Shown here piece by piece: positions 40,754 to 64,000 of a stretch of DNA of 64,000 nucleotides (its first letter is position 1; every line of letters starts with the position of its first letter). The notes below the pieces were generated by a model, which searched no databases, was not told the DNA's origin, and was given only the letters and a program-made list of their open reading frames with translations. Both the position numbers and the translations under genes were made by a program. This DNA is from Antedon mediterranea (taxonomy: Eukaryota; Animalia; Echinodermata). The stretch is from positions 15,782,948 to 15,846,947 of the forward strand of contig NC_092673.1 in assembly GCF_964355755.1 (NCBI RefSeq), given 5' to 3'.

Positions 40754-41745
40754 GGTTCTAGGACACCTACCCCCTAGACAGTTACCCCCCGGATGTTTAC
40801 CCCCTTATGACAACTACCCCCCGGACAACTACCCCCTTAGGACAACTACCCCCTTAGGATAACAACCCCCCGGACAACCACCCCCTTAGGATAACTACCC
40901 CCCGGATAACTACCCCCCGGGTAACTACCCCCGGTCAACTACCCCCTGGTCAACTACCACCCCCCCCCCCCCCCCCCAATCCAAAAGTAGACAAATATAT
41001 AGGACCGGTTTCTGTAAAAATGAAATCATCTGTTTTTAACGGGTGTTTCGAAACTAGAGACCCGAGACCAGAGACCTGACACGAGACCCAATACGAAAAG
41101 GGAGACCTATATTTGGGTCTCCCTTTTCGTATATTAGGGTCTCCCTTTCGGTATAGTGTGGTCTCTCTTTTCGTATAGTGAGTCTCCCTTTTCTTATAGT
41201 GGGTCTCCCTTTTCGTATATTTGGATCTCCCATTTTGTATATTTGGGTCTCCCTTTTCGTATATTTGGGTCTCCCTTTTCGTATACAGTATTTAGGTCTC
41301 CCTTTTCGTATAGTGGGGTCTCCCTTTTCGTATAGTGGGGTCTCCCTTTTCGTACGTGGGTCTCCCTTTTCGTATATTTAGGTCTCTCTTTTCGTATTGG
41401 GTCTCGGGTCTCTGACTCCAAGTAGTTGTCCTACGGGGAGTATTGTGTCAGAGGTAGTTGTCCGCGGGGTAATTACCCGGGGGGGGGGGGTAATTGTCCG
41501 TGGGGTTGTTGTCCGGAGGGGGGGGTAATTGTTCCTAGGGGTAATTGTCCGGGGGGTAGTTTTCCAGGGGGTAGTTGTCCTAAGGGGGTTGTTGTCCTAA
41601 GGGGGTAGTTGTCCGGGGGGTATTTGTCCGGGGGGTAGTTGTCCTAAAGGGGTAGTTGTCCTAAGGGGGTAGTGGTCCAGGTGGTGGTTGTCCGGGGGGT
41701 AGTTTTCCGGGGGGTAAATGTCCAGGGGGTGAATATCCGGATACG
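40754..41745. mobile_element. Foldback-type non-autonomous DNA transposon, 8-bp target duplication
   Basis: GTTCAATG at 40746-40753 and 41746-41753; left arm is ~17-bp ggacaactacccc repeats and right arm is their inverse, ggggtagttgtcc. Confidence 0.8.
41057..41415. repeat. Internal ~21-bp array (gggtctcccttttcgtata..) with inverted ends, probably a second nested element
   Basis: gagacccgagacc...aatacgaaaagggagacct on the left versus aggtctctcttttcgtattgggtctcgggtctc on the right; about 14 units. Confidence 0.7.
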
Positions 41746-41867: not shown

Positions 41868-43020
41868 AGTGCACTATTTCCTTGACTTATATCACAGACA
41901 AATATTAGTATTAACATCACTTAAAGGTGCACTATTACCATGTCTTACATACAAATAAGTATTAACATCACTGGAAGGTGCACTATTACCATGTCTTACA
42001 TCATAGACAAATAAGTATTAACATCACTTAAAGGCGCACTATTACCATGTCTTATCATCACAGACAAATAAGTATTAACATTACTTAAAGGTGCACTATT
42101 ACCATGTCTTACATCACAGACAAATAAGTATTAACATCACTTAAAGGCGCACTATTACCATGTCTTATCATCACAGACAAATAAGTATTAACATCACTTA
42201 AAGGTGCACTATTACCATGTCTTACATCATAGATAAATAAGTATTAACATTACTTAAAGGTGCACTATTACCATGTCTTACATAGTCAAATAAGTATTAA
42301 CATCACTTAAAGGTGCACTATTACCATGTCTTACATCATAGACAAATAAGTATTAACATCACTTAAAGGCGCACTATTACCATGTCTTATCATCACAGAC
42401 AAATAAGTATTAACATCACTTAAAGGTGCACTATTACCATGTCTTACATCATAGACAAATAAGTATTAACATCACTTAAAGGTGCACTATTACCTTGTCT
42501 TACATAGACAAATAAGTATTAACATCACTTAAAGGTGCACTATTACCATGTCTTACATCATAGACAAATAAGTATTAACATCACTTAAAGGCGCACTATT
42601 ACCATGTCTTACATCACAGACAAATAAGTATTAACATCACTTAAAGGTGCACTATTACCATGTCTTACATCATAGACAAATAAGTATTAACATCACTTAA
42701 AGGTGCACTATTACCATGTCTTATCATCACAGACAAATAAGTATTAACATCACTTAAAGGTGCACTATTACCATGTCTTACATCATAGACAAATAAGTAT
42801 TAACATCACTTAAAGGTGCACTATTACCTTGTCTTACATAGACAAATAAGTATTAACATCACTTAAAGGTGCACTATTACCATGTCTTACATCATAGACA
42901 AATAAGTATTAACATCACTTAAAGGTGCACTATTACCTTGTCTTACATCATAGACAAATAAGTATTAACATCACTTAAAGGTGCACTATTACCATGTGCA
43001 CTATTACCACATATTAACAT
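41868..43020. repeat. 56-bp satellite (aaataagtattaacatcacttaaaggtgcactattaccatgtcttacatcatagac), about 20 copies
   Basis: Directly visible, with ~50-57 bp variants; degenerate continuation to 43179 and after 53983. Confidence 0.95.
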
Positions 43021-43180
43021 CAGAAATAACTTATCGGTTAAAATGACTATATTACTTGCTGTAAAAACAGTAAATGACTTATAAATTCATTTAGTTCTCT
43101 TTTATTTATTTCCAACTTCATATTCATTAGAAACATGAATTAGGCCCTACACATTTTAAGTATTAAAGTCACTTACTAGT

Positions 43181-44760
43181 GTAACCCAGGCTACAAAAGT
43201 AGGCCAGTCAAAGAAGATGAAGGGTAACCCAGGCCACAAAAGTGTGCCAGTCAAAGAAGATGAAGGGTAACCCAGGCCACAAAAGTGTGCCAGTCTAAGA
43301 AGATGAAGGGTAACCCAGGCCACAAAAGTGTGCCAGTCTAAGAAGATGAAGGGTAACCCAGGCCACAAAAGTGTGCCAGTCTAAGAAGATGAAGGGTAAC
43401 CCAGGCCACAAAAGTGTGCCAGTCAAAGAAGATGAAGGGTAACCCAGGCCACAAAAGTGTGCCAGTCAAAGAAGATGAAGGGTAACCCAGGCCACAAAAG
43501 TGTGCCAGTCTAAGAAGATGAAGGGTAACCCAGGCCACAAAAGTGTGCCAGTCCAAGAAGATGAAGGGTAACCCAGGCCACAAAAGTGTGCCAGTCTAAG
43601 AAGATGAAGGGTAACCCAGGCCACAAAAGTGTGCCAGTCTAAGAAGATGAAGGGTAACCCAGGCCACAAAAGTGTGCCAGTCTAAGAAGATGAAGGGTAA
43701 CCCAGGCCACAAAAGTGTGCCAGTCAAAGAAGATGAAGGGTAACCCAGGCCACAAAAGTGTGCCAGTCAAAGAAGATGAAGGGTAACCCAGGCCACAAAA
43801 GTGTGCCAGTCTAAGAAGATGAAGGGTAACCCAGGCCACAAAAGTGTGCCAGTCTAAGAAGATGAAGGGTAACCCAGGCCACAAAAGTGTGCCAGTCTAA
43901 GAAGATGAAGGGTAACCCAGGCCACAAAAGTGTGCCAGTCTAAGAAGATGAAGGGTAACCCAGGCCACAAAAGTGTGCCAGTCTAAGAAGATGAAGGGTA
44001 ACCCAGGCCACAAAAGTGTGCCAGTCTAAGAAGATGAAGGGTAACCCAGGCCACAAAAGTGTGCCAGTCAAAGAAGATGAAGGGTAACCCAGGCTACAAA
44101 AGTGTGCCAGTCCAAGAAGATGAAGGGTAACCCAGGCCACAAAAGTGTGCCAGTCTAAGAAGATGAAGGGTAACCCAGGCCACAAAAGTGTGCCAGTCTA
44201 AGAAGATGAAGGGTAACCCAGGCCACAAAAGTGTGCCAGTCTAAGAAGATGAAGGGTAACCCAGGCCACAAAAGTGTGCCAGTCTAAGAAGATGAAGGGT
44301 AACCCAGGCCACAAAAGTGTGCCAGTCTAAGAAGATGAAGGGTAACCCAGGCCACAAAAGTGTGCCAGTCAAAGAAGATGAAGGGTAACCCAGGCTACAA
44401 AAGTGTGCCAGTCCAAGAAGATGAAGGGTAACCCAGGCCACAAAAGTGTGCCAGTCTAAGAAGATGAAGGGTAACCCAGGCCACAAAAGTGTGCCAGTCT
44501 AAGAAGATGAAGGGTAACCCAGGCCACAAAAGTGTGCCAGTCTAAGAAGATGAAGGGTAACCCAGGCCACAAAAGTGTGCCAGTCTAAGAAGATGAAGGG
44601 TAACCCAGGCCACAAAAGTGTGCCAGTCTAAGAAGATGAAGGGTAACCCAGGCCACAAAAGTGTGCCAGTCAAAGAAGATGAAGGGTAACCCAGGCTACA
44701 AAAGTGTGCCAGTCTAAGAAGATGAAGGGTAACCCAGGCCACAAAAGTGTGCCAGTCCAA
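43181..44760 (+). repeat. 43-bp tandem array in 5' LTR U3 (37 units, last partial)
   Basis: Unit gtaacccaggccacaaaagtgtgccagtc(t/a/c)aagaagatgaagg; 1580 bp. Confidence 0.97.
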
Positions 44761-44957
44761 GGAAATTGCAACATTTACACATTCCTACTTCCTTACAAAC
44801 AAACAAAGTACTGACCAACATACTTTAAGTATGAGCTAATTATTTTAAGGATAAACTATTAGCTGATCAAACTCCAAATAAGGAAATAGGGCCACCATCA
44901 TCTACCATTAGATAATGGTCCAGGAATGTATTTCGGAACAACAGGGTGGGGCCAAGA

Positions 44958-44995
44958 TATATAAAAAAGACTGCAGAGTTGGGAAAAATCACAAC
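44958..44995 (+). promoter_or_regulatory. LTR TATA box and predicted initiator/TSS
   Basis: TATATAAAA at 44958-44966, with TCACA about 32 nt downstream (44989-44993). Confidence 0.65.
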
Positions 44996-45565
44996 TCAAC
45001 TCTAAATCTATTGAGAGCAGTCAGGTCCTCCCTGATACTTTTTGTACGTTCTGAAAGAAGTTGTATTTACACTTATTCCTTGCTCAACAAATTCAGGTAA
45101 GATAACCAACATAAACTTATTATTTTGTAGCGTAAGTAACATAGCTAAGTCCTTTAGTTGTACTTGTTAACTACATATAGGATACTACTTTTATGTTTAT
45201 CATTGCTCGTTGTCCAGCAATGAATTTATTATCTTAGATACAACTTGATATATTGTAAATATGTACTATATGTTTGACCACCTTATATCGTATTGATTGT
45301 ATGTTTATATGTAAGTTAGAGTGTAGTAATAAGACCCTGTCATTATATACTCACTAGGCTATGATTTATTAGCTAATCCTAAATTATCCTTGAATGAAGC
45401 CTCCTGTATAGAGAATTCTGTAGTTATAGGAATTAAATACAAAAAGGCTACCGTAGTACACAACTCAACTCTAAATCTATTGAGAGCAGTCAGGTCCTCC
45501 CTGATACTTTTTGTACGTTCTGAAAGAAGTTTTATTTACACTTATTCCTTGTTCAACAAATTCAG
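44990..45565 (+). other. Duplicated 107-bp segment (44990-45096, 45459-45565) bracketing a predicted 469-nt GT-AG intron (45097-45565) in the 5' LTR
   Basis: Copy 1 ends ttcAG|GTAAGA and copy 2 ends ttcAG|GTTGAG. The duplication is directly visible; splicing is inferred. Confidence 0.7.
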
Positions 45566-45947
45566 GTTGAGGGAAGATTGCCCAAGTTGGATTCTGTGTG
45601 TAAAGTCCACAGCCAGACGAGGGAATCGGTGGAGTGTATAAGCATCAAACTTCGAACGGGTTTACCACACCAAAAAGGGGACAAGCTCGACCACTGCCAG
45701 TTGTCAACAAACTTAAGTTTGACTTGTTATCTAAATCTTTAAGCATACTTAATTATAAGTCGCATATTGTATAATTTGTATTACGATTTAGAATAATAAC
45801 ACATCTACTATAAGCCAACTATTGTGTACTCTTTTATTTATTATCTATGTGTGTCTAGTGCCGCTGCCCCAATCAACTCGAACCCCGCTCACCTCAACCC
45901 TAAGTCGATAATCGTTTGTGTTGTGTGTAGAGCGGTTACATAAAAAC

Positions 45948-45965
45948 TGGCGCCCAATGTGGGGC
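45948..45965 (+). promoter_or_regulatory. Primer binding site, tRNA-Lys(CUU)
   Basis: TGGCGCCCAATGTGGGGC versus canonical Lys1,2 PBS TGGCGCCCAACGTGGGGC (17/18; the mismatch gives a G-U pair). Confidence 0.92.
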
Positions 45966-46174
45966 TTGAAAAGGCACTAGTCAGATAATAAATTTATAAT
46001 TATATACCTACTATATTGCATATTTTTATCATTGTATTATATTTCATGCTTTTCAATTTTACTTTATAATATTTTTGTACCCTTATATATCTAATTATTG
46101 TTTTATAATTTGTAATATTTGATCGTAATTTCACTTATTTTAATTTACAATTGTAACTTCTTATTTTGTATACC

Positions 46175-47494
46175 ATGGATATATATGACTGGTGTATTAA
46201 ACATAAGGTCGATCCTAATCATGCTATTGCATTAAGGGGTGTATTGAAGGCCAATTATAGTCACGATAGAATACCTAATGCATTCAAAGAAATAGATCGA
46301 TCCCAGGTTGTTGAAGTTATAGATGAAACAGATATCACTTTTCAATTACTACTTTCGTTTTCCAAACCTGTAGTAGATCTAAATATCCCCACAACCATTG
46401 ACCACACAGATAACGAAACCTGGACTATTATAACATGGGATGGGAAAACCCCAGAAAAGGACACCCATATCCTACCCACAGATTTCCAGGGACAACTACA
46501 AAAATTTCTCTTAGAACATGGGAAAACCCTGAACGATCTTAGGCTAGACTCCATCCCCTCCGACACCAAAGAAGTAGTAGTAAAACACCTAATAGGCAAC
46601 AACGTGCCCCGTACGGCCGGTGTTCGTCGGTTACGACAGTTTTCGGGACGGGTGCCAATCCCTTCAAATGAGGTAGACTTTGAGACTTGGTCTCAACTAG
46701 TCCAACAACTTTTAAGGGATGATAGCTTATCACAGGCTGAACAAAAGAGCATCTTAAGTCAAAGTCTCTTTCCTCCAGCACTTAATATCCTAAATAAAGT
46801 GACTGATAAATCAACTGCTAGGGAATGCCATGATGTACTTAATGAGGTCTATGGTTTGGCAGTGGATGCAGATGACCTCTATACTCTATTTAGGGAGACA
46901 TATCAGTCGGAAGGGGAACTGCCCTCTAAATTTTTAATGCGCCTAGATGAAAATCTAACTAGGGCAACAAAGGCTGGGGCAGTTGGGGTAGCAAAGGCTG
47001 ACCATATGAGACTAGCTCAATTTGTCCGTGGGCTAGTATATGACGAGATGCTATCATCTACATTAAACCTGAAACAACGCAAATCAAATCCCCCTACTTA
47101 TTTAACACTGATTAAAGAAGTTAGAAGTGAGGAAATTAATAGTAGGGCTAGGGCAGAAAAGCGAACACCTAAGGCAGTTAGTGCCAAGGCTGCGTTATGT
47201 AGCTATGAAGCCCTTAGTCATGAGGTAGAAGTTCTTAGAACTGAGCTACATCACCTCAAATCAACACCAAGCCCACCAGAGTCCACTCCTAACCCAAAAA
47301 CGCGTTCTTCACCTGCGCCAAACACTAGGCCTAAAATATGTTATAATTGTGGCGAGGATGGGCACCACATGAGGGGTTGTCCCAACCCAACTAATGCCAC
47401 ATTAGTACAGCAGAAATTGGTCAAACGGTTTAATCAGGCGGGAAACGGCAGAGGGCATCCGGGAAGAAGGGACAACGGTCTGCCCCATCAGTAA
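46175..47494 (+). CDS. gag: Gag, PNMA-like, with CCHC zinc knuckle (439 aa)
   Basis: accATGg Kozak context; DWC...AIALRGV N-terminus and RRLRQFSG...FETW motif recall PNMA/Gypsy gag; CYNCGEDGHHMRGC knuckle. Confidence 0.93.
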   Translation: MDIYDWCIKHKVDPNHAIALRGVLKANYSHDRIPNAFKEIDRSQVVEVIDETDITFQLLLSFSKPVVDLNIPTTIDHTDNETWTIITWDGKTPEKDTHILPTDFQGQLQKFLLEHGKTLNDLRLDSIPSDTKEVVVKHLIGNNVPRTAGVRRLRQFSGRVPIPSNEVDFETWSQLVQQLLRDDSLSQAEQKSILSQSLFPPALNILNKVTDKSTARECHDVLNEVYGLAVDADDLYTLFRETYQSEGELPSKFLMRLDENLTRATKAGAVGVAKADHMRLAQFVRGLVYDEMLSSTLNLKQRKSNPPTYLTLIKEVRSEEINSRARAEKRTPKAVSAKAALCSYEALSHEVEVLRTELHHLKSTPSPPESTPNPKTRSSPAPNTRPKICYNCGEDGHHMRGCPNPTNATLVQQKLVKRFNQAGNGRGHPGRRDNGLPHQ

Positions 47495-50400
47495 AAAGGT
47501 CCCAACAAAAGAGAAAGGGAAACACTGGAACAAAAACATCCAATAATTTACTCCATAGTGCAATATCACAAACTAATAATCTTATAGGCGACCCTAGTGT
47601 CGTAACAATAATTGTTGACGGTCATATATGTAATGCAATGTTAGATACAGGCTCGCAGGTTACATGTATCAGTGAAGATTTTTATAAAGATAAATTAAGG
47701 GATAAGCCTATATACCCATTAACCGATTTAATAGTAACTGGTGCTGGCGGTCAGAACGTACCTTATCTAGGTTATATAGAGGTCAATTTAACGTTTCCTA
47801 AAGTCCAGACGGGCTATACTAAACAATTCCCAACATTAGCTTTAGTGTGCCCCAAATTAGGGAAGGGACTGTCTATGTTAATGGGCACCAACACCAGTAT
47901 AGTTCGGGATCTGGCCACTGGCTGGACAAATACTAAGAAAAAGGGAAGGAAAGTAGGCCCCATACACTCTGCTTGGGCTGAAGTGTATAAAGAGGATAAG
48001 GCTAAGAAAGATAAACTAGGCCCCGTTAAAATATGTTCTCCTATGACAATACCTAGAGGAAAAATAGTAGAGGTAGAATGTGTTATAAAGAACACAGTAC
48101 ACCCTAACTTAGATGTGTTAATTGAAGCATCCCCGGATACCCCACTTCCTGGAGGGCTTTTAATCACACCCTTAATAGTCAAGTTAGAACATATGGGCCC
48201 AGTTAAACTTAGAGTTCCTTTGTCAAATTCTAGTAAAGAAATTAGGCTAAATAGAAACTTTAAGATTGCCACTGCTTTCATCCCCCAGTCTATAACGCAT
48301 CACAGTCCGGAAGTTCACTGTAACTCAAGTACGGCCTCAAACAATTTTAATTTTGATAGCTCGCCAATTTCACATATAGATAAGGCGAAATTTATTAATT
48401 TACTTAATAATCATCCGAATGTTTTTTCAAAGAATGATTTAGATATAGGGAGAACTTCGGCTGTAAAACATAAAATACACCTAACTAATGACACCCCATT
48501 CCGTCAACCTTGTAGGAGGATACCCCCATCTGATTTCAATGATGCTAGGGACCACATTCAAGATTTATTAAGGAAGAACATCATTAGAGAGTCCGAAAGC
48601 CAGTATAGTTCTCCTATAGTATTAGTCAGGAAAAAGAAGACTAACGAAATTCGATTATGTATAGATTACAGACTTCTAAATTCTAGGACGGTTAGGGACC
48701 AATACAACGTCCCCAACATTGAAGATGCCCTTACAACCTTACGTGGTGCCAAATGGTTCTCATGTCTTGACCTCAAATCAGGCTATTACAAAATTGAAAT
48801 GGCTGAGGAGGATAAAGCAAAAACTGCATTTTGGTGCCCATTGGGATTCTATGAATTTAACCGAATGCCCCAAGGGATCACTAATGCCCCCGCCACCTTC
48901 CAGCGACTAATGGAGAAGTGCATGGGGGAGTTAACATTCTCCGACGTTCTAGTTTATTTAGATGACTTACTAGTTTTTTCAACCACACTAGACGAACACC
49001 TAGCTAAGTTAGACAAAGTATTATCTAGGCTTGAAGAGTATGGCTTGAAACTAAATCCAGACAAGTGCAATTTTGCCCAAACTTCCATTAAGTGCTTGGG
49101 CCATGTCATTTCAGAGGATGGGGTAAGCACTGACCCAGATAAGGTAGAGGCTGTCAAATCTTGGCCCCGCCCCTCAAATGTAAAAGAATTGAAATCATTT
49201 CTAGGTTTTGCTGGTTATTATCGACGATTTATACAGCATTATAGCCATATTGCCAAACCATTAAACCAACTTATGACTAAGTATGACCCAATACGTAAAC
49301 GAGGTAAAACGTTCAAAAAACCTAAATCCAATACTCCCTCAGAAAGGCGCCCTAGTCCTAATACCCCATTTGGTACTAACTGGTCCGAATCATGTCAGGT
49401 GGCATTTGATGTACTAATAGATAAATTGTCTTCAGCCCCTATATTAGGATTCGCAGACTACAATTCACCATTTATTCTACATACCGACGCTAGCACAAGC
49501 GGGTTAGGTGCAGCCCTATATCAAGAGATAAATGGGATAAAGAGGGTAATTGCCTATGCTAGTCGTGGGTTATCCAAAAGTGAAGCCAATTATCCTGCTC
49601 ATAAATTAGAGTTTCTTGCCCTAAAATGGGCGGTGACTGAGACATTTACTGACTATCTTTATGGTCAACGATTTGTAATTTACACCGATAATAACCCCTT
49701 AACGTACGTGTTGACGACAGCTAAGCTTGACGCTACAGGACAAAGGTGGCTTGCCGCCCTGGTCAATTACAACTTTGATATTAAATACAAAGCAGGTAGA
49801 AACAATCAAGATGCAGACGGTCTTAGTCGTCGCCCACATGACCCCCCTTCCAATGACTTTGAATACGAACAATATCAAGAGAAAGCTGACGAAGTGTTAG
49901 GTAGAGTAAAATTTTCATCCTGTTCGTTCACAGCAGTCTGTAATGCTAAAATAGTTAAAAAGTCTACTATACCTAATGATACAACACCCTTAGTTGAGTC
50001 AGTTAGTGATTCTCCTGATGCAATCCCCGCCATCTATGATAACCCTATTAGGCCTATAGATGGGCAGTCAACCTTGCCTAATGTTACTGCAGCGGAGTGG
50101 GTAGAGCATCAACAACAAGACCCTAATATAAAACCTATTTTTAAATTTGTATATAACAAACGGAAACCTACACAAGATGAACTCACAAAATTACCCGAGG
50201 AAACTAGGCTACTCCTGAGACAGTTTGATAAATTATTGGTAAAAGATAATATTCTATACCGCCAATTTGTAAATAATATCGGAGCTATGCAATTGCAATT
50301 AGTACTTCCAACCGCTTATAGAGATAAAGCATTTACTGGCTTACATGATGACATTGGTCACCCTGGGATGGAACGGACCTTGGATCTTGCCCGATCCAGA

Positions 50401-51984
50401 TTTTATTGGCCTCGTATGTCCTCCCAAATTGAAGATAAATGTAGGTGTTGTGAACGATGTGTCCGAAGAAAGGCCCGTGCTACCAAAGCAGCCCCCCTAG
50501 TTAGTGTCAGAACCACCATGCCTATGGAATTAATGTGTATTGACTTTCTGTCTATAGAACCTGATTCTAAGGATACTAGAAATGTATTAGTTGTGACTGA
50601 CCATTTCACTAGATATGCTATTGCTATCCCAACTAAGGACCAAAAAGCCCCCACAGTAGCAAAAGCTCTGTGGAATAATGTCTTTCAACATTATGGCTTT
50701 CCAAAACAATTACATTCAGATCAAGGCAGAGATTTCGAATCAAAACTTATCCAAGATTTATGTAAATATTTAGGAGTAAGAAAATCTCGTACAACCCCAT
50801 ACCATCCCCAGGGTAATGGTCAGGTAGAACGGTTTAACCAAACCCTGCTTAAAATGCTAGGCACTCTAGAAAACCAAAAGAAAGAACATTGGCGAGACCA
50901 TGTTGCACCCTTAGTGCATGCATACAATTGTACTAAGAATGATGCTACGGGAATGTCCCCATATTATTTAATGTTTGGTAGAGAAGCCCGCCTCCCAATT
51001 GACATCCAACTAGGTATTGACCCAAATCAAAATGGTTCATTTTCTCCAAGGGGATATGCCGACAAATTACGACATCGCCTAGAAACAGCACACAAATTAG
51101 CCCAGGAAATGGCAACCAAGAAAGCTAATGCCAATAAAGCCCGATATGATAGTAAAGTGCGTGAATGCACTATTTGCAAGGGTGATAGGGTACTAGTAAA
51201 AAATGTGCGCTTAAGGGGTAAACATAAACTTGCTGATAGGTGGGAAGAAACTATTTATGTGGTTTTGGAACAAATAGGGGACAACCCTGTGTACAAGATA
51301 GAGCCTGAAGATAGTGATGGTCCTACTAGAACATTGCATAGAAATATGCTACTCCCATGTAGGTTTGCTACAGCAAAGGAAACTCCCCCTAAAAGTGGTA
51401 CTAAAGAAAAACAAAGACAGAGAAAGCCTGTCACTCGACAAGGGCACAAAACGCCTAAGTCAACTGTCCCACAGCCAGAACTATCTGGACATGAAACAAG
51501 TGATAGTGATTTAGATTATTACATTCCAAATTCAGTTCGCACACTTCAACAACCAACAGATCCATCTATACCTCCTAATCTGGGTAATGACCAAAACGTG
51601 GCTCAAACTATTATAGAAACCCCAATTGTTAACGAAATAGAACCTCAGATCAATGAGGAAGATGTAATAGTTAACCATGATATTAATGATTTCGAAGATG
51701 CTGTTATTCATAATTTAGACAACAATGATAATGTTAATATTGATAATGCTAATAATGAGCCTGATATTCAACCTGATGTCCACGAACCACAGGCTAATAC
51801 AGATGATACCTTACGTCCTAAACGGCTAAGAACACAGCCAGAAAGGTTAGGTTATTTTGCTCCCGGCCAACAAGTTACATCAACTTCTAATATGGTGGTC
51901 CAAGTCATTGGGATGCAAAACCAAATGTTTGCTGATATGATGCAATCTCAATTATCACTTTTAAGAGGCTCTAAGCCGAATTAA
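47434..51984 (+). CDS. pol: Pol polyprotein (protease, RT, RNase H, integrase), expressed as a Gag-Pol fusion
   Basis: The frame is open upstream of the listed ATG (LIGDPSVVTIIVDGHICNAM-LDTGS); RT YLDD; RNase H TDAS/LEFLA/TDN; integrase HDDIGH..CERC and IDF/SDQG/ERFN. Confidence 0.96.
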   Translation, partial: SGGKRQRASGKKGQRSAPSVKRSQQKRKGNTGTKTSNNLLHSAISQTNNLIGDPSVVTIIVDGHICNAMLDTGSQVTCISEDFYKDKLRDKPIYPLTDLIVTGAGGQNVPYLGYIEVNLTFPKVQTGYTKQFPTLALVCPKLGKGLSMLMGTNTSIVRDLATGWTNTKKKGRKVGPIHSAWAEVYKEDKAKKDKLGPVKICSPMTIPRGKIVEVECVIKNTVHPNLDVLIEASPDTPLPGGLLITPLIVKLEHMGPVKLRVPLSNSSKEIRLNRNFKIATAFIPQSITHHSPEVHCNSSTASNNFNFDSSPISHIDKAKFINLLNNHPNVFSKNDLDIGRTSAVKHKIHLTNDTPFRQPCRRIPPSDFNDARDHIQDLLRKNIIRESESQYSSPIVLVRKKKTNEIRLCIDYRLLNSRTVRDQYNVPNIEDALTTLRGAKWFSCLDLKSGYYKIEMAEEDKAKTAFWCPLGFYEFNRMPQGITNAPATFQRLMEKCMGELTFSDVLVYLDDLLVFSTTLDEHLAKLDKVLSRLEEYGLKLNPDKCNFAQTSIKCLGHVISEDGVSTDPDKVEAVKSWPRPSNVKELKSFLGFAGYYRRFIQHYSHIAKPLNQLMTKYDPIRKRGKTFKKPKSNTPSERRPSPNTPFGTNWSESCQVAFDVLIDKLSSAPILGFADYNSPFILHTDASTSGLGAALYQEINGIKRVIAYASRGLSKSEANYPAHKLEFLALKWAVTETFTDYLYGQRFVIYTDNNPLTYVLTTAKLDATGQRWLAALVNYNFDIKYKAGRNNQDADGLSRRPHDPPSNDFEYEQYQEKADEVLGRVKFSSCSFTAVCNAKIVKKSTIPNDTTPLVESVSDSPDAIPAIYDNPIRPIDGQSTLPNVTAAEWVEHQQQDPNIKPIFKFVYNKRKPTQDELTKLPEETRLLLRQFDKLLVKDNILYRQFVNNIGAMQLQLVLPTAYRDKAFTGLHDDIGHPGMERTLDLARSRFYWPRMSSQIEDKCRCCERCVRRKARATKAAPLVSVRTTMPMELMCIDFLSIEPDSKDTRNVLVVTDHFTRYAIAIPTKDQKAPTVAKALWNNVFQHYGFPKQLHSDQGRDFESKLIQDLCKYLGVRKSRTTPYHPQGNGQVERFNQTLLKMLGTLENQKKEHWRDHVAPLVHAYNCTKNDATGMSPYYLMFGREARLPIDIQLGIDPNQNGSFSPRGYADKLRHRLETAHKLAQEMATKKANANKARYDSKVRECTICKGDRVLVKNVRLRGKHKLADRWEETIYVVLEQIGDNPVYKIEPEDSDGPTRTLHRNMLLPCRFATAKETPPKSGTKEKQRQRKPVTRQGHKTPKSTVPQPELSGHETSDSDLDYYIPNSVRTLQQPTDPSIPPNLGNDQNVAQTIIETPIVNEIEPQINEEDVIVNHDINDFEDAVIHNLDNNDNVNIDNANNEPDIQPDVHEPQANTDDTLRPKRLRTQPERLGYFAPGQQVTSTSNMVVQVIGMQNQMFADMMQSQLSLLRGSKPN
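47440..47503 (+). promoter_or_regulatory. -1 ribosomal frameshift signal (G GGA AAC) with predicted pseudoknot
   Basis: Heptamer 47440-47446 is in the gag frame; the pol frame is -1 and open from 47434; stems GGGCA/TGCCC and GGGAC/GTCCC start 6 nt downstream. Confidence 0.85.
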
Positions 51985-52198
51985 TTTTATAATGTTATTT
52001 TTACTATATGTTTATATATACACGCCAATTTTGATTCCTTTTCAATGTAATATTTTTTTTTCACTGTATATTTTATGTATTAAGACAGGTGAATTACGAT
52101 CAAAAACTAAATGGTGACGTAGTTAAGCACTACTTTTAATGTAAATGTTGGTTACCATTGAGTTTGTTGAGCGTCGTCCGGGGACGGACGAATATTTT

Positions 52199-52209
52199 GG
52201 CAGGGTGAG
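52199..52209 (+). promoter_or_regulatory. Polypurine tract
   Basis: ggcagggtgag immediately precedes the TG of the 3' LTR. Confidence 0.7.
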
Positions 52210-53982
52210 TGTAACCCAGGCTACAAAAGTAGGCCAGTCAAAGAAGATGAAGGGTAACCCAGGCCACAAAAGTGTGCCAGTCAAAGAAGATGAAGGGTAA
52301 CCCAGGCTACAAAAGTGTGCCAGTCAAAGAAGATGAAGGGTAACCCAGGCCACAAAAGTGTGCCAGTCTAAGAAGATGAAGGGTAACCCAGGCCACAAAA
52401 GTGTGCCAGTCAAAGAAGATGAAGGGTAACCCAGGCCACAAAAGTGTGCCAGTCTAAGAAGATGAAGGGTAACCCAGGCCACAAAAGTGTGCCAGTCTAA
52501 GAAGATGAAGGGTAACCCAGGCCACAAAAGTGTGCCAGTCTAAGAAGATGAAGGGTAACCCAGGCCACAAAAGTGTGCCAGTCTAAGAAGATGAAGGGTA
52601 ACCCAGGCCACAAAAGTGTGCCAGTCTAAGAAGATGAAGGGTAACCCAGGCCACAAAAGTGTGCCAGTCTAAGAAGATGAAGGGTAACCCAGGCCACAAA
52701 AGTGTGCCAGTCAAAGAAGATGAAGGGTAACCCAGGCTACAAAAGTGTGCCAGTCTAAGAAGATGAAGGGTAACCCAGGCCACAAAAGTGTGCCAGTCCA
52801 AGGAAATTGCAACATTTACACATTCCTACTTCCTTACAAACAAACAAAGTACTGACCAACATACTTTAAGTATGAGCTAATTATTTTAAGCAATAAACTA
52901 TTAGCTGATCAAACTCCAAATAAGGAAATAGGGCCACCATCATCTACCATTAGATAATGGTCCAGGAATGTATTTCGGAACAACAGGGTGGGGCCAAGAT
53001 ATATAAAAAAGACTGCAGAGTTGGGAAAAATCACAACTCAACTCTAAATCTATTGAGAGCAGTCAGGTCCTCCCTGATACTTTTTGTACGTTCTGAAAGA
53101 AGTTGTATTTACACTTATTCCTTGCTCAACAAATTCAGGTAAGATAACCAACATAAACTTATTATTTTGTAGCGTAAGTAACATAGCTAAGTCCTTTAGT
53201 TGTACTTGTTAACTACATATAGGATACTACTTTTATGTTTATCATTGCTCGTTGTCCAGCAATGAATTTATTATCTTAGATACAACTTGATATATTGTAA
53301 ATATGTACTATATGTTTGACCACCTTATATCGTATTGATTGTATGTTTATATGTAAGTTAGAGTGTAGTAATAAGACCCTGTCATTATATACTCACTAGG
53401 CTATGATTTATTAGCTAATCCTAAATTATCCTTGAATGAAGCCTCCTGTATAGAGAATTCTGTAGTTATAGGAATTAAATACAAAAAGGCTACCGTAGTA
53501 CACAACTCAACTCTAAATCTATTGAGAGCAGTCAGGTCCTCCCTGATACTTTTTGTACGTTCTGAAAGAAGTTGTATTTACACTTATTCCTTGCTCAACA
53601 AATTCAGGTTGAGGGAAGATTGCCCAAGTTGGATTCTGTGTGTAAAGTCCACAGCCAGACGAGGGAATCGGTGGAGTGTATAAGCATCAAACTTCGAACG
53701 GGTTTACCACACCAAAAAGGGGACAAGCTCGACCACTGCCAGTTGTCAACAAACTTAAGTTTGACTTGTTATCTAAATCTTTAAGCATACTTAATTATAA
53801 GTCGCATATTGTATAATTTGTATTACGATTTAGAATAATAACACATCTACTATAAGCCAACTATTGTGTACTCTTTTATTTATTATCTATGTGTGTCTAG
53901 TGCCGCTGCCCCAATCAACTCGAACCCCGCTCACCTCAACCCTAAGTCGATAATATTTTGTGTTGTGTGTAGAGCGGTTACA
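52210..53982 (+). repeat. 3' LTR (1773 bp), with a 14-unit 43-bp array (52211-52801) and the same 107-bp duplication (53032-53138, 53501-53607)
   Basis: Collinear with the 5' LTR apart from 23 fewer units (989 bp) and a 1-bp indel. Confidence 0.95.
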
Positions 53983-54522
53983 CTTAGAAAAGTGTATCAC
54001 TTGATAATGCACTATTAATCGCTGTAAAAACAGATAACATAGACAGATAAGTATACTACCATTACTCAAAGTGCCCTTTCACTCGCAATAAACTCAATAA
54101 AATAAGAATATCAAAAATAAAAAAATCAATTGAAAGGAAATATCGTTGCCATTATTAAAGATAAATTCTAACCCGAGAAGTACATTCCACCGTAGGAAAT
54201 ACAATAATAGTGTTCGGTTGAGAAAAGAACAAATATTAGTTTATCTAGGTAAGTATGCACAAAATAAATTTATTAATTTAATTTAGCACTTAAATTTACC
54301 AATTATCAATGTTTGCATTCAGTGCGTGCAGTAGCGTCTACCAGTAAAAACGCAAAGATAATAAACGCTGATCATAGGTGAATGGTGTTGTTTGTTCATA
54401 AGAAATTCTTATTTGTTTGATATTAATTAAAATAGTAACAAATTACTAAATCAATAGTCAAAACTAGTGAGAGAGATAATGCACCTGTTTGCTATGTTGA
54501 AATTGAGTAGAATAAGTATTAA

Positions 54523-59660: not shown

Positions 59661-62600
59661 CGCTGCTGAAGATGTTGAAGAATTACATACATTTATATTT
59701 GAATTCAACTGAATATCACAAGCTATTAATAAGTTCAAGTTGATCAGTTATAAATATTTAGCTGGCATTATCTTTTTATTATATCAAGGATATTGAAATG
59801 TGTACCTAATGGCCTAGTTTGAATTTATAGACAAGTCAGCTGATTCGTGTTAACATTTCTGTAGCCGCCGATAATGCTTGTTTTACAGTACCTTCAGGGA
59901 ACAGTGGTGGAAATTGACTGTTATAACTGTCATTTATATAGAACCGGCCTTCAGGCTCTTCATTATTATATACTATAATCGATTATATTACCTCGTTTAA
60001 CCCTTTTCCTTGCCTGTGACTTGGCGTCGTTAGAACTTGCCATATTCGCAAAGTAACGCGTTAGTAATAATATTACAGCGATAGCGTCATTGTGCTTGGT
60101 TTTACATTAACTTAATTAGAAGAAAAAATTCCTTTGTGACATAATGTATGTATTTTTTTGCTGTGGAAGTATTAAAATTATTAGCATTTATAAACACGCA
60201 TGTAGTTTCCTTATTTAATAAAAATGAGGGTATTGAAATTTTCAATATGAATTGAAAAATAAAACTAAAGATTAAAGATGTATTTTTCCAGTGAAAAAAT
60301 ATTTTTTGTTTTAATGGTTTTTTTAATATGCCATTTTAATGTCACATAATAGGTATTATTATTTGACCAAAAATGGATCACAAAAAAAATTATTTACTTG
60401 AAAACTATAATCGAAGGCAAAAATTGACTTGAATTCAATAGGTGTTTGGTTGAATTTAACCGTTTATTTTGAAAACATCATTTTTTTTCCTATGGAAATG
60501 ATTAACTTTGTTAAAACGACAAAATGGCCTATTCAAAGTCTGATTTATTAATTTTCATTTTTTTATCTTTTTTGGGGGACAATACATCTTTAACTTTGAA
60601 AGAGATATTGTCGTTGAATATAATGTTGGATATAACATTAAAATGTTATATCCAACATTATATTAAAATACGTATAAATACGTATAGCCTAGGTAAAACG
60701 TTTACATTTAGGTATACAGAGGCTATCATACATAAATGATAAAAATTGAGTGGCGTTTACGAGCATCACCATAAAGTCACGTGGGATTATTTATGTGTCA
60801 AGCTACTTGACATTGTTCTTCAGACGTAGGTCATAAATGATGTGTGACATAATGATACCATACTATTATCTAGTCTAGATATGAATCGATACTTAAGAAA
60901 TATCTCATCCTAAACATATTAGCAGTAACACATCGACGAAGAGCGTATGCATTGAGTATTAATTAATATTTTATTACCCAGTGTCCGTCATAAATAACAA
61001 GCAGATGAATTAAACACTGTATGGCATTTAAATGTTTTTGTCACAATGTTGCTTGGGGGATTTCTCCTGTAATTTCTATATTTGGCGTGTCATATGAAAG
61101 TTATCGCGACAGCAATGTGAGCATGCGCAGTTCTGTAAAGTTTGGCTAACTGAAGAAAATAAGGAGATACAGTAATTACAAAAAAGAAGAGTAGCTAAAA
61201 CGCCATTAAAAATAAAAAAGTAGACCTAGGTTTACTCTAACGATTATAGTCATACAAATCAATGAATGAAACAAGTTTGATTTTAATAATGTTGTTTAAT
61301 ATTCACAATGCACCAAACTCTTACATTAGGCCTATTTGCTGAACTAAAATAGCACTGTATAACCGTCAGTTTACATATTTATATGGGAATATATCAGCTG
61401 TGACAGACATTAACAATAAACAATAAAACGTTTATTTCGCCCATTTTAAATTGAACCCAAAAAGTACATATTATAAATATATTATATTTACAGATACAAT
61501 TAGGTCAGACTTTATCTGGCTATGATCGCCGATGCGTTATAGTTATGTTAATTAATAAGCATACAAGCTGTAAAGTGTTGTAGTGTATGTTAACATTACT
61601 TATGAATTGTTATGTCTATATACATAATGCATTTCATAAATATCAATACCAAACAATTACACTTACTCTTCTCTTCAATTACTGATAGTAGTCATAGTTC
61701 ATAACACATTTGATTATTTTAGTAGATTTGCTGATACAGAAGAAGAATTGACAATTACGTCAAAAAAGTAACATCTGTAACGTTACTTTCACATATATCT
61801 TTTAGAGAAGTTTTGTTTTACAATTTATAAATTAATGCCGATTAACCATGCTCAAATGTGTACCCCGAGTTTTTTCTTAAGGTTAATCCACCCAAATAAG
61901 AATATGTTTTTATGTTTCCCCTCTCAACAGCCCGTCCGCTTTGGGTTTTGGAAATGGTCATAAGAAATAACAAATTCTATATTTTGTTACTGCTTACGGT
62001 TACCGCTCGTCTGAGCAAGGCAATCTAACAACAGGGCAGTGAGCCTTGTCAAAATACGAACTCGTTACAGTCATTTGATCTTAATGTCTGGCTCCGACAA
62101 ATACTAACAGTAATGTACTGTACATATTATTCCACGGTGCGCAGTATCAGTAAGGGGTGTGGAACTGATCGTGTCGCAGCCACAAATAAACCCTTTGGTC
62201 TCCGGAGATCAGCATCCTGTTGTTAAATTGCCTTGGTCTGACTAAGGCTGTTCTGCCGAACCGTACAGTTGTCAAATGCGTCGCTCTGGATTGCCAAATG
62301 CGTTGTTCCTGTGTTGAACAGGTTAAACACCGCACAATATCAACAAAAGATCATTATTAATTCGATGCGTGTGATGTCTGATTAAAACATACCTAACCGT
62401 TATTATTCATCATCGCGTGTTATGTTCGCTTGATCTGTCAGTAATAAAACAAGTATTACAATATTATATTAATATTCTCATATAGTTCTCAATAGTGAAA
62501 ATATTTTATTCCATCCTTCGGTGGCTAATTACTTTTTATGCAATCGCTTGAATAGCCTGCCTCTCTGAATATTTGAATTTATAATGTTTATACATAGACT

Positions 62601-64000
62601 TTTGTACACAAATACATTACAATTTCTTATTTATACATAAATATACTCTATTGTTATAGACAGCTATAGTTATTAATAAACGGTTTATGTATATCGTTAT
62701 TCATTCAAAAACTTTATGGTTTTGAAATGATCATACATAATACATCAATATGCACAAACTAAACATACATTATACAGCCTTGTTATTACATACACGTTTT
62801 ACACGTTGAGGCCCACACGTCGCGTGCGTTGAAACGACGTTGAAATGGTACGACCAAATACATGATGTCGAAACGCTTGCCTTATATATACATATGAAAA
62901 ATATATAATGTTATAAGTCATATTATTAATATCATAATTTACTTAATAAACTACATTATGCTAATACTTTTAAAGATGTATTGTTCGCCAAAAAAATGAA
63001 AAATGAAGATAAATAAAATAAGAATTGTATAGTTAATAATTACTTCCTTTAAAAAAAAATAAAAATATAATTTCATTTAAAAAAGAAAAATTTACTTTAA
63101 ATTAAGGTATAAATTATTTTTTTCAGCTAGTAATTCATTTTTTAAAGTGAATTATGTTTCATTAAAATGGCATATTATAAAAACATATTTTGTGGACAAT
63201 ATAGCTCCATGTATACCAATTCTGTATGTACTTAATATTAACATGAAAAACAAGAATAGCAGCACTGCTCCTTGAATAATTATCTGTTAATAGCATTGAA
63301 TTAGTAGTAAATATTAATTATTAAATTGAATAATTATTAATATCCAAAACAAACGACTTTACAAAGTGAATGGATCTTAATTGAGATTTCGACGGGATGC
63401 TAAATAAATAAAAAATAAATAAATAAATAAATCCGTCAGAAAAATGCTACTTTTGGAAAAGAAAACTCCTTTTTTCGGATATAGATATATAATTATTATA
63501 AATATAGATTTATTGTTTAACATTTGTGACTAGATCACTTTTGAAAACTGGCCAAAGCACAAGGTGAATTTATTTCTTTTTATTTTACGTTTGATTGATA
63601 ATACAAACACGTACAAATCACTACAATTAATACTTCAAAGTTCAATACAGCACATTATAAATATCCACCAATCACCAATCACCAATCACACACAATGATA
63701 GTAATTAGTCTCTTATACTCAAGAAAGTTCTTTGATTTAAAATACACACAGACACATAAATTGCTTTTCAACTTATACACAACTCGATGCAATAAATACT
63801 TATTGCATAAACACATTGTCCATGTGATAACCCCACTCCTATTTAGAATACGTTTACACATAAAACAAATCCTTATTTATATAATAAATATAAGCTTAAT
63901 TTAAACCGACGCCAACTCAAAGAACATAGACGATATATCTCACGCGAGTTATAAACATACCGAGCGGCGATTGATTTACATCGTCGGTAACTTGTGGTTT

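Follow-up and report, generated by a model that had tools for sequence, protein, structure and literature searches.

By the textbook rule, the R region of an LTR retrotransposon is a single contiguous segment. Pairs of repeats that are kept alike by reverse transcription are known from the Drosophila element TART, whose perfect non-terminal repeats are maintained by a template jump, but TART is a non-LTR telomeric element with no intron involved and in this it differs from the Antedon element described here. A review of plant elements states that LTR elements are generally intronless and treats intron loss as the defining mark of retrotransposition (PMC12786077). In maize, LTR retrotransposons were found to give spliced transcripts contained within the LTR, with introns downstream of the start site, which the authors claim as first evidence; unlike for the Antedon element, the accessible text of that paper neither mentions a duplicated first exon nor explains what lets the intron persist, and the term 'strand transfer' is absent from it (PMC13192763). 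Penelope-like elements, according to the accessible part of the report on them, keep a 5'-UTR intron in their terminal repeat after retrotransposition by a mechanism that is stated there to be unknown, but they are a different class without integrase and no exon copy is described in that part (PMC8557442). Foamy viruses have their major splice donor within R in both LTRs, upstream of their poly(A) signal, and handle it differently at each end; in the accessible text, however, their genomic RNA is unspliced and their LTR has neither acceptor nor exon copy, unlike the Antedon design (PMC3694450). The accessible part of work on human cells shows that HUSH silences intronless elements and that the intron is the cue by which genes are told from retroelements (PMC8770142). 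Our literature search, which covered papers from outside most subscription journals, found no description of an LTR with a duplicated first exon; such journals, or entries in Repbase and Dfam, may mention the repeat. The LTR design reported here is real, recurrent and apparently undescribed in animal Gypsy elements. If it is spliced and yet restores its intron, it would be a clean exception to intron loss on reverse transcription with a concrete mechanism, and the usual U3-R-U5 scheme would have to be altered for a broad range of Gypsy elements in animals.

The Antedon mediterranea element and its duplicated segment

The window, that is the whole stretch of 64,000 nt that was analysed, holds at 43180-53982 an intact, env-less Gypsy retrotransposon whose LTRs carry the design under study (Table 1). 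It has LTRs, a putative primer-binding site, a gag, a frameshifted protease-RT-RNase H-integrase pol and no env, like the Ty3/Gypsy elements with a PNMA-type gag in crinoid, sea cucumber, fish and frog records; the difference from the Ty3/Gypsy rule is that an intron likely interrupts R, the first part of which is present twice. The gag product is identical to a database protein labelled Antedon mediterranea, a feather star, and the pol relatives at 55-69% identity are labelled sea cucumber, fish and frogs. In pol the protease was recognised by a DTG motif in the translation and is followed by Pfam matches to RT (400-559), RNase H (650-779) and integrase (959-1165). The 225 nt from the pol stop to the 3' LTR contain no plus-strand ORF of 60 aa, and hence no env was found. 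With an integrase and true LTRs the element is distinct from Penelope-like elements, which have a GIY-YIG endonuclease or none, lack integrase and have pseudo-LTRs. DIRS and Ngaro elements have split repeats and a tyrosine recombinase in place of integrase; the domains of this pol include an integrase and no tyrosine recombinase. The putative primer-binding site is presumably of the tRNA-Lys type.

Over the unique 1181 nt, the 5' and 3' LTRs differ in 6 alignment columns. The 43-bp array in U3 is of very different length in these otherwise nearly identical LTRs (36.8 vs 13.8 units), which may be due to slippage at plus-strand transfer, to later expansion or to assembly. The element is flanked by putative target-site copies, CTAG on the left (43176-43179) and CTTAG on the right (53983-53987), one base apart. 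In the DNA run X1, which matches the flank almost letter for letter, one contig begins at the last base of the LTR without continuing into the LTR. This contig is likely the empty allele, and the insertion is therefore probably recent and heterozygous. Just left of the retrotransposon, a 56-bp array (41869-42997) adjoins a foldback-like element with inverted arms of 15-17-bp repeats (40761-41730).

Table 1. Features of the Antedon element in the window, and copy identities and donors of the related elements that carry the design
Feature	Position	Strand	Remarks
5' LTR	43180..45940	+	TG...CA ends
43-bp tandem array, U3 of 5' LTR	43181..44761	+	36.8 units
TATA box (predicted), TATATAAA	44958..44965	+	32 nt from its first base to copy 1
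Copy 1, predicted first exon	44990..45096	+	ends CAG; start predicted from TATA spacing and relatives
Predicted 469-nt intron	45097..45565	+	donor GTAAGA, 362-nt spacer (29% GC), copy 2 as acceptor; putative splicing
Copy 2, 3' end of predicted intron	45459..45565	+	predicted landing site of strong-stop cDNA
Predicted exon 2 (rest of R and U5)	45566..45940	+	375 nt, without AATAAA
Primer-binding site (putative)	45948..45965	+	TGG-starting 18-mer, 8 nt past 5' LTR
gag	46175..47494	+	439 aa, PNMA domain (E 4e-26), CCHC knuckle
pol	47434..51984	+	1516 aa stop to stop, fully open, -1 frame
Slippery heptamer G GGA AAC, gag frame	47440..47446	+	predicted -1 frameshift into pol
3' LTR	52210..53982	+	second of two direct LTRs, TG...CA
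43-bp array, 3' LTR	52211-52802	+	13.8 units
Copy 1 of 3' LTR	53032-53138	+	followed by GTAAGA
Copy 2 of 3' LTR	53501-53607	+	identical to copy 1 of 3' LTR
Relative L041			copies 88/88; donor GTAATT
Relative L046			copies 76/76; donor GTATGT
Relative L065			copies 66/68; donor GTATGA
Relative L072			copies 97/101; donor GTAAGC
Relative L081			copies 104/104; donor GTATGT
Relatives L013, L026			partial carriers; design seen, one copy cut by contig end

The sequence-only reading had reported a 107-nt segment present twice in each LTR, and self-comparison recovered all four copies at the same coordinates. Its further observations also held, namely that the pair in the 3' LTR is identical whereas that in the 5' LTR differs at 45532 and 45552, that about 32 nt separate the TATA box from copy 1, that the donor GTAAGA stands at 45097, and that 469 nt lie between this donor and the second AG. 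Since copy 1 is followed by GTAAGA and copy 2 by GTTGAG, the match is 109 nt when the shared GT is counted. The RNA start is likely the A of 44991, judging from the promoter spacing. The flanks of the copies had been called unrelated, and this was borne out only in part: over the 24 nt upstream 18/24 positions match, a TATA-like word among them, which is a score that 85-125 of 1000 shuffles also reach. What failed was the proposal to use 45532 and 45552 for telling spliced RNA from RNA that starts at copy 2. All four runs compared read the copy-1 letters at these sites, so the variants are private to this one LTR copy and are poor markers for that purpose.

In an independent DNA run, a 417-nt contig contains the spacer with the end of the repeat on one side and the start of the repeat on the other, which shows that the arrangement is not an assembly artefact; the repeat itself was collapsed to one 109-nt contig in the run assemblies. 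The family, including the spacer, is also present in a second species (runs X6 and X7), and family-level contigs have the intron bordered by the repeat in both species examined, although the families of the two species are too close to reveal concerted substitutions. Rough contig depths, which are not a copy number, suggest some 7 internal regions against 17-19 LTRs, of which nearly all would contain the spacer. Nor was there support for an older, longer duplication enclosing the repeat; the best match between the sides, spacer against exon 2 (4/500 shuffles), was out of register. A contig of single-copy depth in X1 comes from a diverged related LTR. Its match to 45476-45910 takes in part of the spacer as well as the repeat and exon 2 and continues unbroken through the repeat; this contig may represent an old copy with two drifted repeats.

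Related elements and the boundaries of the repeat

Relatives were fetched with an alignment of 20 pol proteins. The best 80 of 494 metagenome-contig loci were taken together with 13 loci from prokaryote genome records, presumably host DNA, which gave 93 loci in total; viral contigs yielded no relatives. The 13 contigs filed as bacterial genome records (L081-L093) hold animal-type Gypsy elements and are likely host contamination. LTRs were scored by self-comparison with purine tracts and primer sites marked, and 18 loci were readable up to the primer site, including L046, L053 and L065, whose LTR start was not pinned; 71/93 loci fell outside the scorable set. The design was seen in 5 of these 18 complete LTRs and in the two partial carriers, the RT-RNase H of the relatives being 52-58% identical to that of the Antedon element. 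In the five complete carriers the length from donor to AG ranges from 178 to 479 nt and the spacers are AT-rich. Two other candidates, L044 and L076, were dropped as uncertain because of a repeat cut by the contig end and a purine-rich end with a weak donor, respectively. The remaining 13/18 complete LTRs had no exon copy, and some of these negatives may be false because short-read assembly may hide the design.

The recurrence in related Gypsy families that the sequence-only reading had predicted was thus found, in the form of repeats of unrelated sequence with the same two boundaries. The repeats are unlike one another and unlike the Antedon repeat except for those of L041 and L046, which are homologous; these two loci stem from a single assembly, which leaves them less than fully independent. 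When all dispersed repeats of at least 40 nt and at least 88% identity were collected from the 18 complete LTRs, 5/5 ended at CAG|GT[AG], an end for which the chance is about 0.008 each at the given base composition with 5 nt of slack. Copy 2 of the carriers ends in CAG. At the other boundary, copy 1 starts at a pyrimidine|purine pair in 6/7 elements (P=0.002 if independent), the Antedon copy being one base off. In L065 and L081 copy 1 begins at the A of TCAGTT and TCATTC, respectively, which by consensus we take to be initiator-like words, and a clear TATA-like box is present only in the Antedon element and L081. With ends matched to a donor and starts matched to a start-site pair, the repeat runs from start site to donor and is by its sequence a first exon. 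In 8/9 elements the last 20 nt before CAG are pyrimidine-richer than the rest of the copy, as expected if this exon end has to double as an acceptor. AATAAA follows copy 2 after 18 nt in L072 and 38 nt in L065, and none follows it in L041, L046, L081 or Antedon. An AG just before copy 2 in L041 and L065 is a possible competing acceptor. A G before copy 2, a possible signature of a copied cap, is present in 3/7 elements (P=0.15, not significant), and part of the family in the second species has a G variant at 45459 (depth 68 of 176); this G could be a copied cap or an old acceptor and is a lead only. Strong donors in the 19 complete LTRs number 20 in sense and 10 in antisense (15 vs 8 of 19 LTRs), which is only a mild excess.

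Within families the two copies are 96-100% identical, while between the sister families of L041 and L046 only 52/88 positions match, so that the predicted near-identity within elements and divergence between families was observed. These two families are 79% identical in RT-RNase H and their repeats are clearly homologous (0/300 shuffles); despite this divergence the pairs inside each family are perfect. L081 is 73% identical to both, its own pair is perfect as well, and the three form a clade (89/85). Independent divergence of the copies had been named as a sign against the proposal; among the 20 strong sense donors of the 19 complete LTRs including Antedon, 6 had local matches of 92-100%, 14 had nothing beyond shuffles, and no half-diverged pair was seen. 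Pairs that are either near-perfect or absent, together with identity within families, are what overwriting in each cycle predicts. On the tree the carrier label needs 5 changes over 21 scorable rows, the carriers formed one clade in 0% of 200 bootstrap trees, and a single clade was rejected (p-AU 4e-10). On this tree, which has no firm root, repeated gain and repeated loss of the copy fit alike.

Five loci (L023, L033, L035, L053 and L084) have an LTR donor and acceptor-like and AATAAA signals without an exon copy. LTR introns may be common in animal Gypsy elements, going by these signals, and since relatives keep predicted LTR introns without the copy, the copy would be one route of persistence and not the sole one. 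Three of the five (L023, L035 and L053) make up the sister group of the L081 clade, which suggests that the intron came before the exon copy. Strong LTR donors without an exon copy were also seen at L003:5105 and L012:5915. Very short matches of 9, 7 and 6 nt between the bases upstream of a strong donor and those at a downstream AG were seen at L085:7150-7290, L053:4796-4990 and L015:5700-6200, respectively; these matches, some of which start from an initiator-like word, are possibly miniature versions of the design or just splice consensus.

A possible rebuilding of the intron and its alternatives

The reading that we favour, with a probability of roughly 70%, is that strong-stop cDNA made at a spliced 5' end finds copy 2 at a 3' end left unspliced and in doing so rebuilds the intron and overwrites copy 2 in each cycle. 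This proposal of the sequence-only reading gains indirect support from the comparison, in which relatives share the boundaries, copies are identical within families and the intron is flanked by the repeat in both species. RNA would start at copy 1, and the donor near the cap would be joined to the AG that ends copy 2, which would give a 5' end made of exon 1 and exon 2. At the 3' end the same donor would lie about 7.5 kb past the last acceptor and would be poorly used. Selective splicing of the 5' end could follow from the nearness of the donor to the cap. The RNA would end in exon 2 and leave U3, copy 1, the intron and copy 2 intact. Because copy 2 plus exon 2 is the same string as the spliced 5' end, minus-strand strong-stop cDNA would pair with it in one piece near the RNA end, this being its sole unbroken match, and following the usual strand-transfer scheme it would be extended through the spacer, copy 1 and U3, by which both daughter LTRs would gain the full design. 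The near-identity of the copies would result from copy 2 being rewritten from copy 1 every cycle. An intronless daughter would arise if the cDNA landed on copy 1 or if the 3' end were spliced. Several origins of the design are likely, in LTRs with a pre-existing intron onto whose end a spliced strong-stop cDNA was extended. Its benefit might be an RNA marked by an intron and thereby better exported or less silenced, which is a guess. The Antedon element has ATTAAA 25 nt before copy 2; use of this signal would put the RNA end where copy 2 begins, and for the Antedon family the model would then fail. The exon-copy design would offer a testable answer to how LTR introns persist, and it would allow the start site and the first exon of these elements to be recognised from sequence alone.

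The wider claim, to which we give somewhat better than even odds, is that a split-R LTR has evolved repeatedly, in many lineages of animal Gypsy elements. In such an LTR a spliceosomal intron in R would be removed from the 5' end of the packaged RNA, and each replication would restore it through strand transfer to the exon 1 copy. This would be an undescribed route by which a retroelement is spliced and nevertheless passes on its intron, possibly one that mimics a host gene to intron-sensing silencing and export.

The alternative that survives best, though we hold it to be unlikely, is that copy 2 is a frozen scar made once from spliced RNA, that replication proceeds mostly from unspliced RNA, and that the copies are alike because they are recent. 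Several relatives that keep predicted LTR introns without a copy would fit this, and so would the 5 changes and the rejected single clade, by which the copy has come or gone more than once; in maize, according to the accessible part of that report, LTR transcripts are often spliced within the LTR (PMC13192763). Old scars, however, should leave half-diverged pairs, and there were 0 in 19 complete LTRs. Moreover, the L041/L046/L081 clade consists entirely of carriers with 100% identity within each family, and the repeats of L041 and L046 are homologous and yet diverged, which speaks against a scar, although three recent origins are possible in so small a sample.

It is less probable still that copy 2 serves as a second promoter that gives unspliced RNA, the donor of copy 1 then acting in U1-dependent control of poly(A) in the manner of foamy viruses, which use a donor inside R this way (the accessible text of PMC3694450). 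The TATA-like word 25 nt before the Antedon copy 2 and the 18/24 match to the copy-1 promoter speak for it, and contigs cannot separate a start at copy 2 from a spliced start at copy 1, but the upstream match is not beyond chance by the shuffles given above and copy 2 is without the pyrimidine|purine start in 5/6 relatives. Copy 1 would also be plain U3 and free to drift, yet it stays matched. In folding, the donor was not consistently hidden at the 3' end: its accessibility was lower with upstream sequence in 2/7 elements and about equal in the others.

An ordinary duplication inside the LTR, homogenised by gene conversion or template switching and with no role in splicing, is very improbable. 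LTRs are prone to internal repeats and the Antedon LTR has its 43-bp array, but such an origin is largely refuted, as it leaves unexplained that 5/5 repeats end at a donor and 6/7 begin at a start-site pair, and direct repeats that exchange sequence would tend to lose the spacer between them. Assembly artefact or chance is hardly credible even though the relative loci are mostly from short-read assemblies, since independent contigs of separate runs with the repeat on both sides of the spacer refute it for the window and an artefact would not respect splice signals across several assemblies.

Contigs of RNA-like runs

The runs were compared as assembled contigs only. X5 and X9 were judged to be RNA solely from their cover, which includes 61.3-64 kb but not much of the unique DNA at 54-61 kb, a part evenly covered by X1 and X7. 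A 147-nt contig of X9 begins with 98 nt of U3 and extends into the repeat, with two 67-nt variants overlapping it, and a 499-nt contig leads from the repeat via exon 2 into a flank; neither end of the repeat branches among the X9 contigs, and no single contig bridges U3 to exon 2. This tiling from U3 through the copy to exon 2 fits spliced RNA or a transcribed intronless LTR and is a weak hint. As the X9 path enters from U3, either the intron can also be lost from read-through RNA or an intronless LTR is present in that genome; read-through RNA lacking the intron would yield intronless daughters. No joint from copy end to copy start was present among the contigs of X5 or X9. Neither the spacer nor the internal region is covered in X9, a gap that proves nothing and was given no weight. 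Relative to the spacer, the X5 depth is 2.7-fold for exon 2 and 5.0-fold for the repeat, compared to 1.1 and 2.6 in the DNA run X1. The ratio of spacer to internal region in X5 is that of DNA (2.41 vs 2.37), so that the X5 spacer signal may be background DNA, and because contig depth cannot rank parts these depth ratios were not counted as evidence. Both RNA-like runs, which are from two species, have long contigs over 61300-64000, a region without a long ORF that is likely part of a host transcript.
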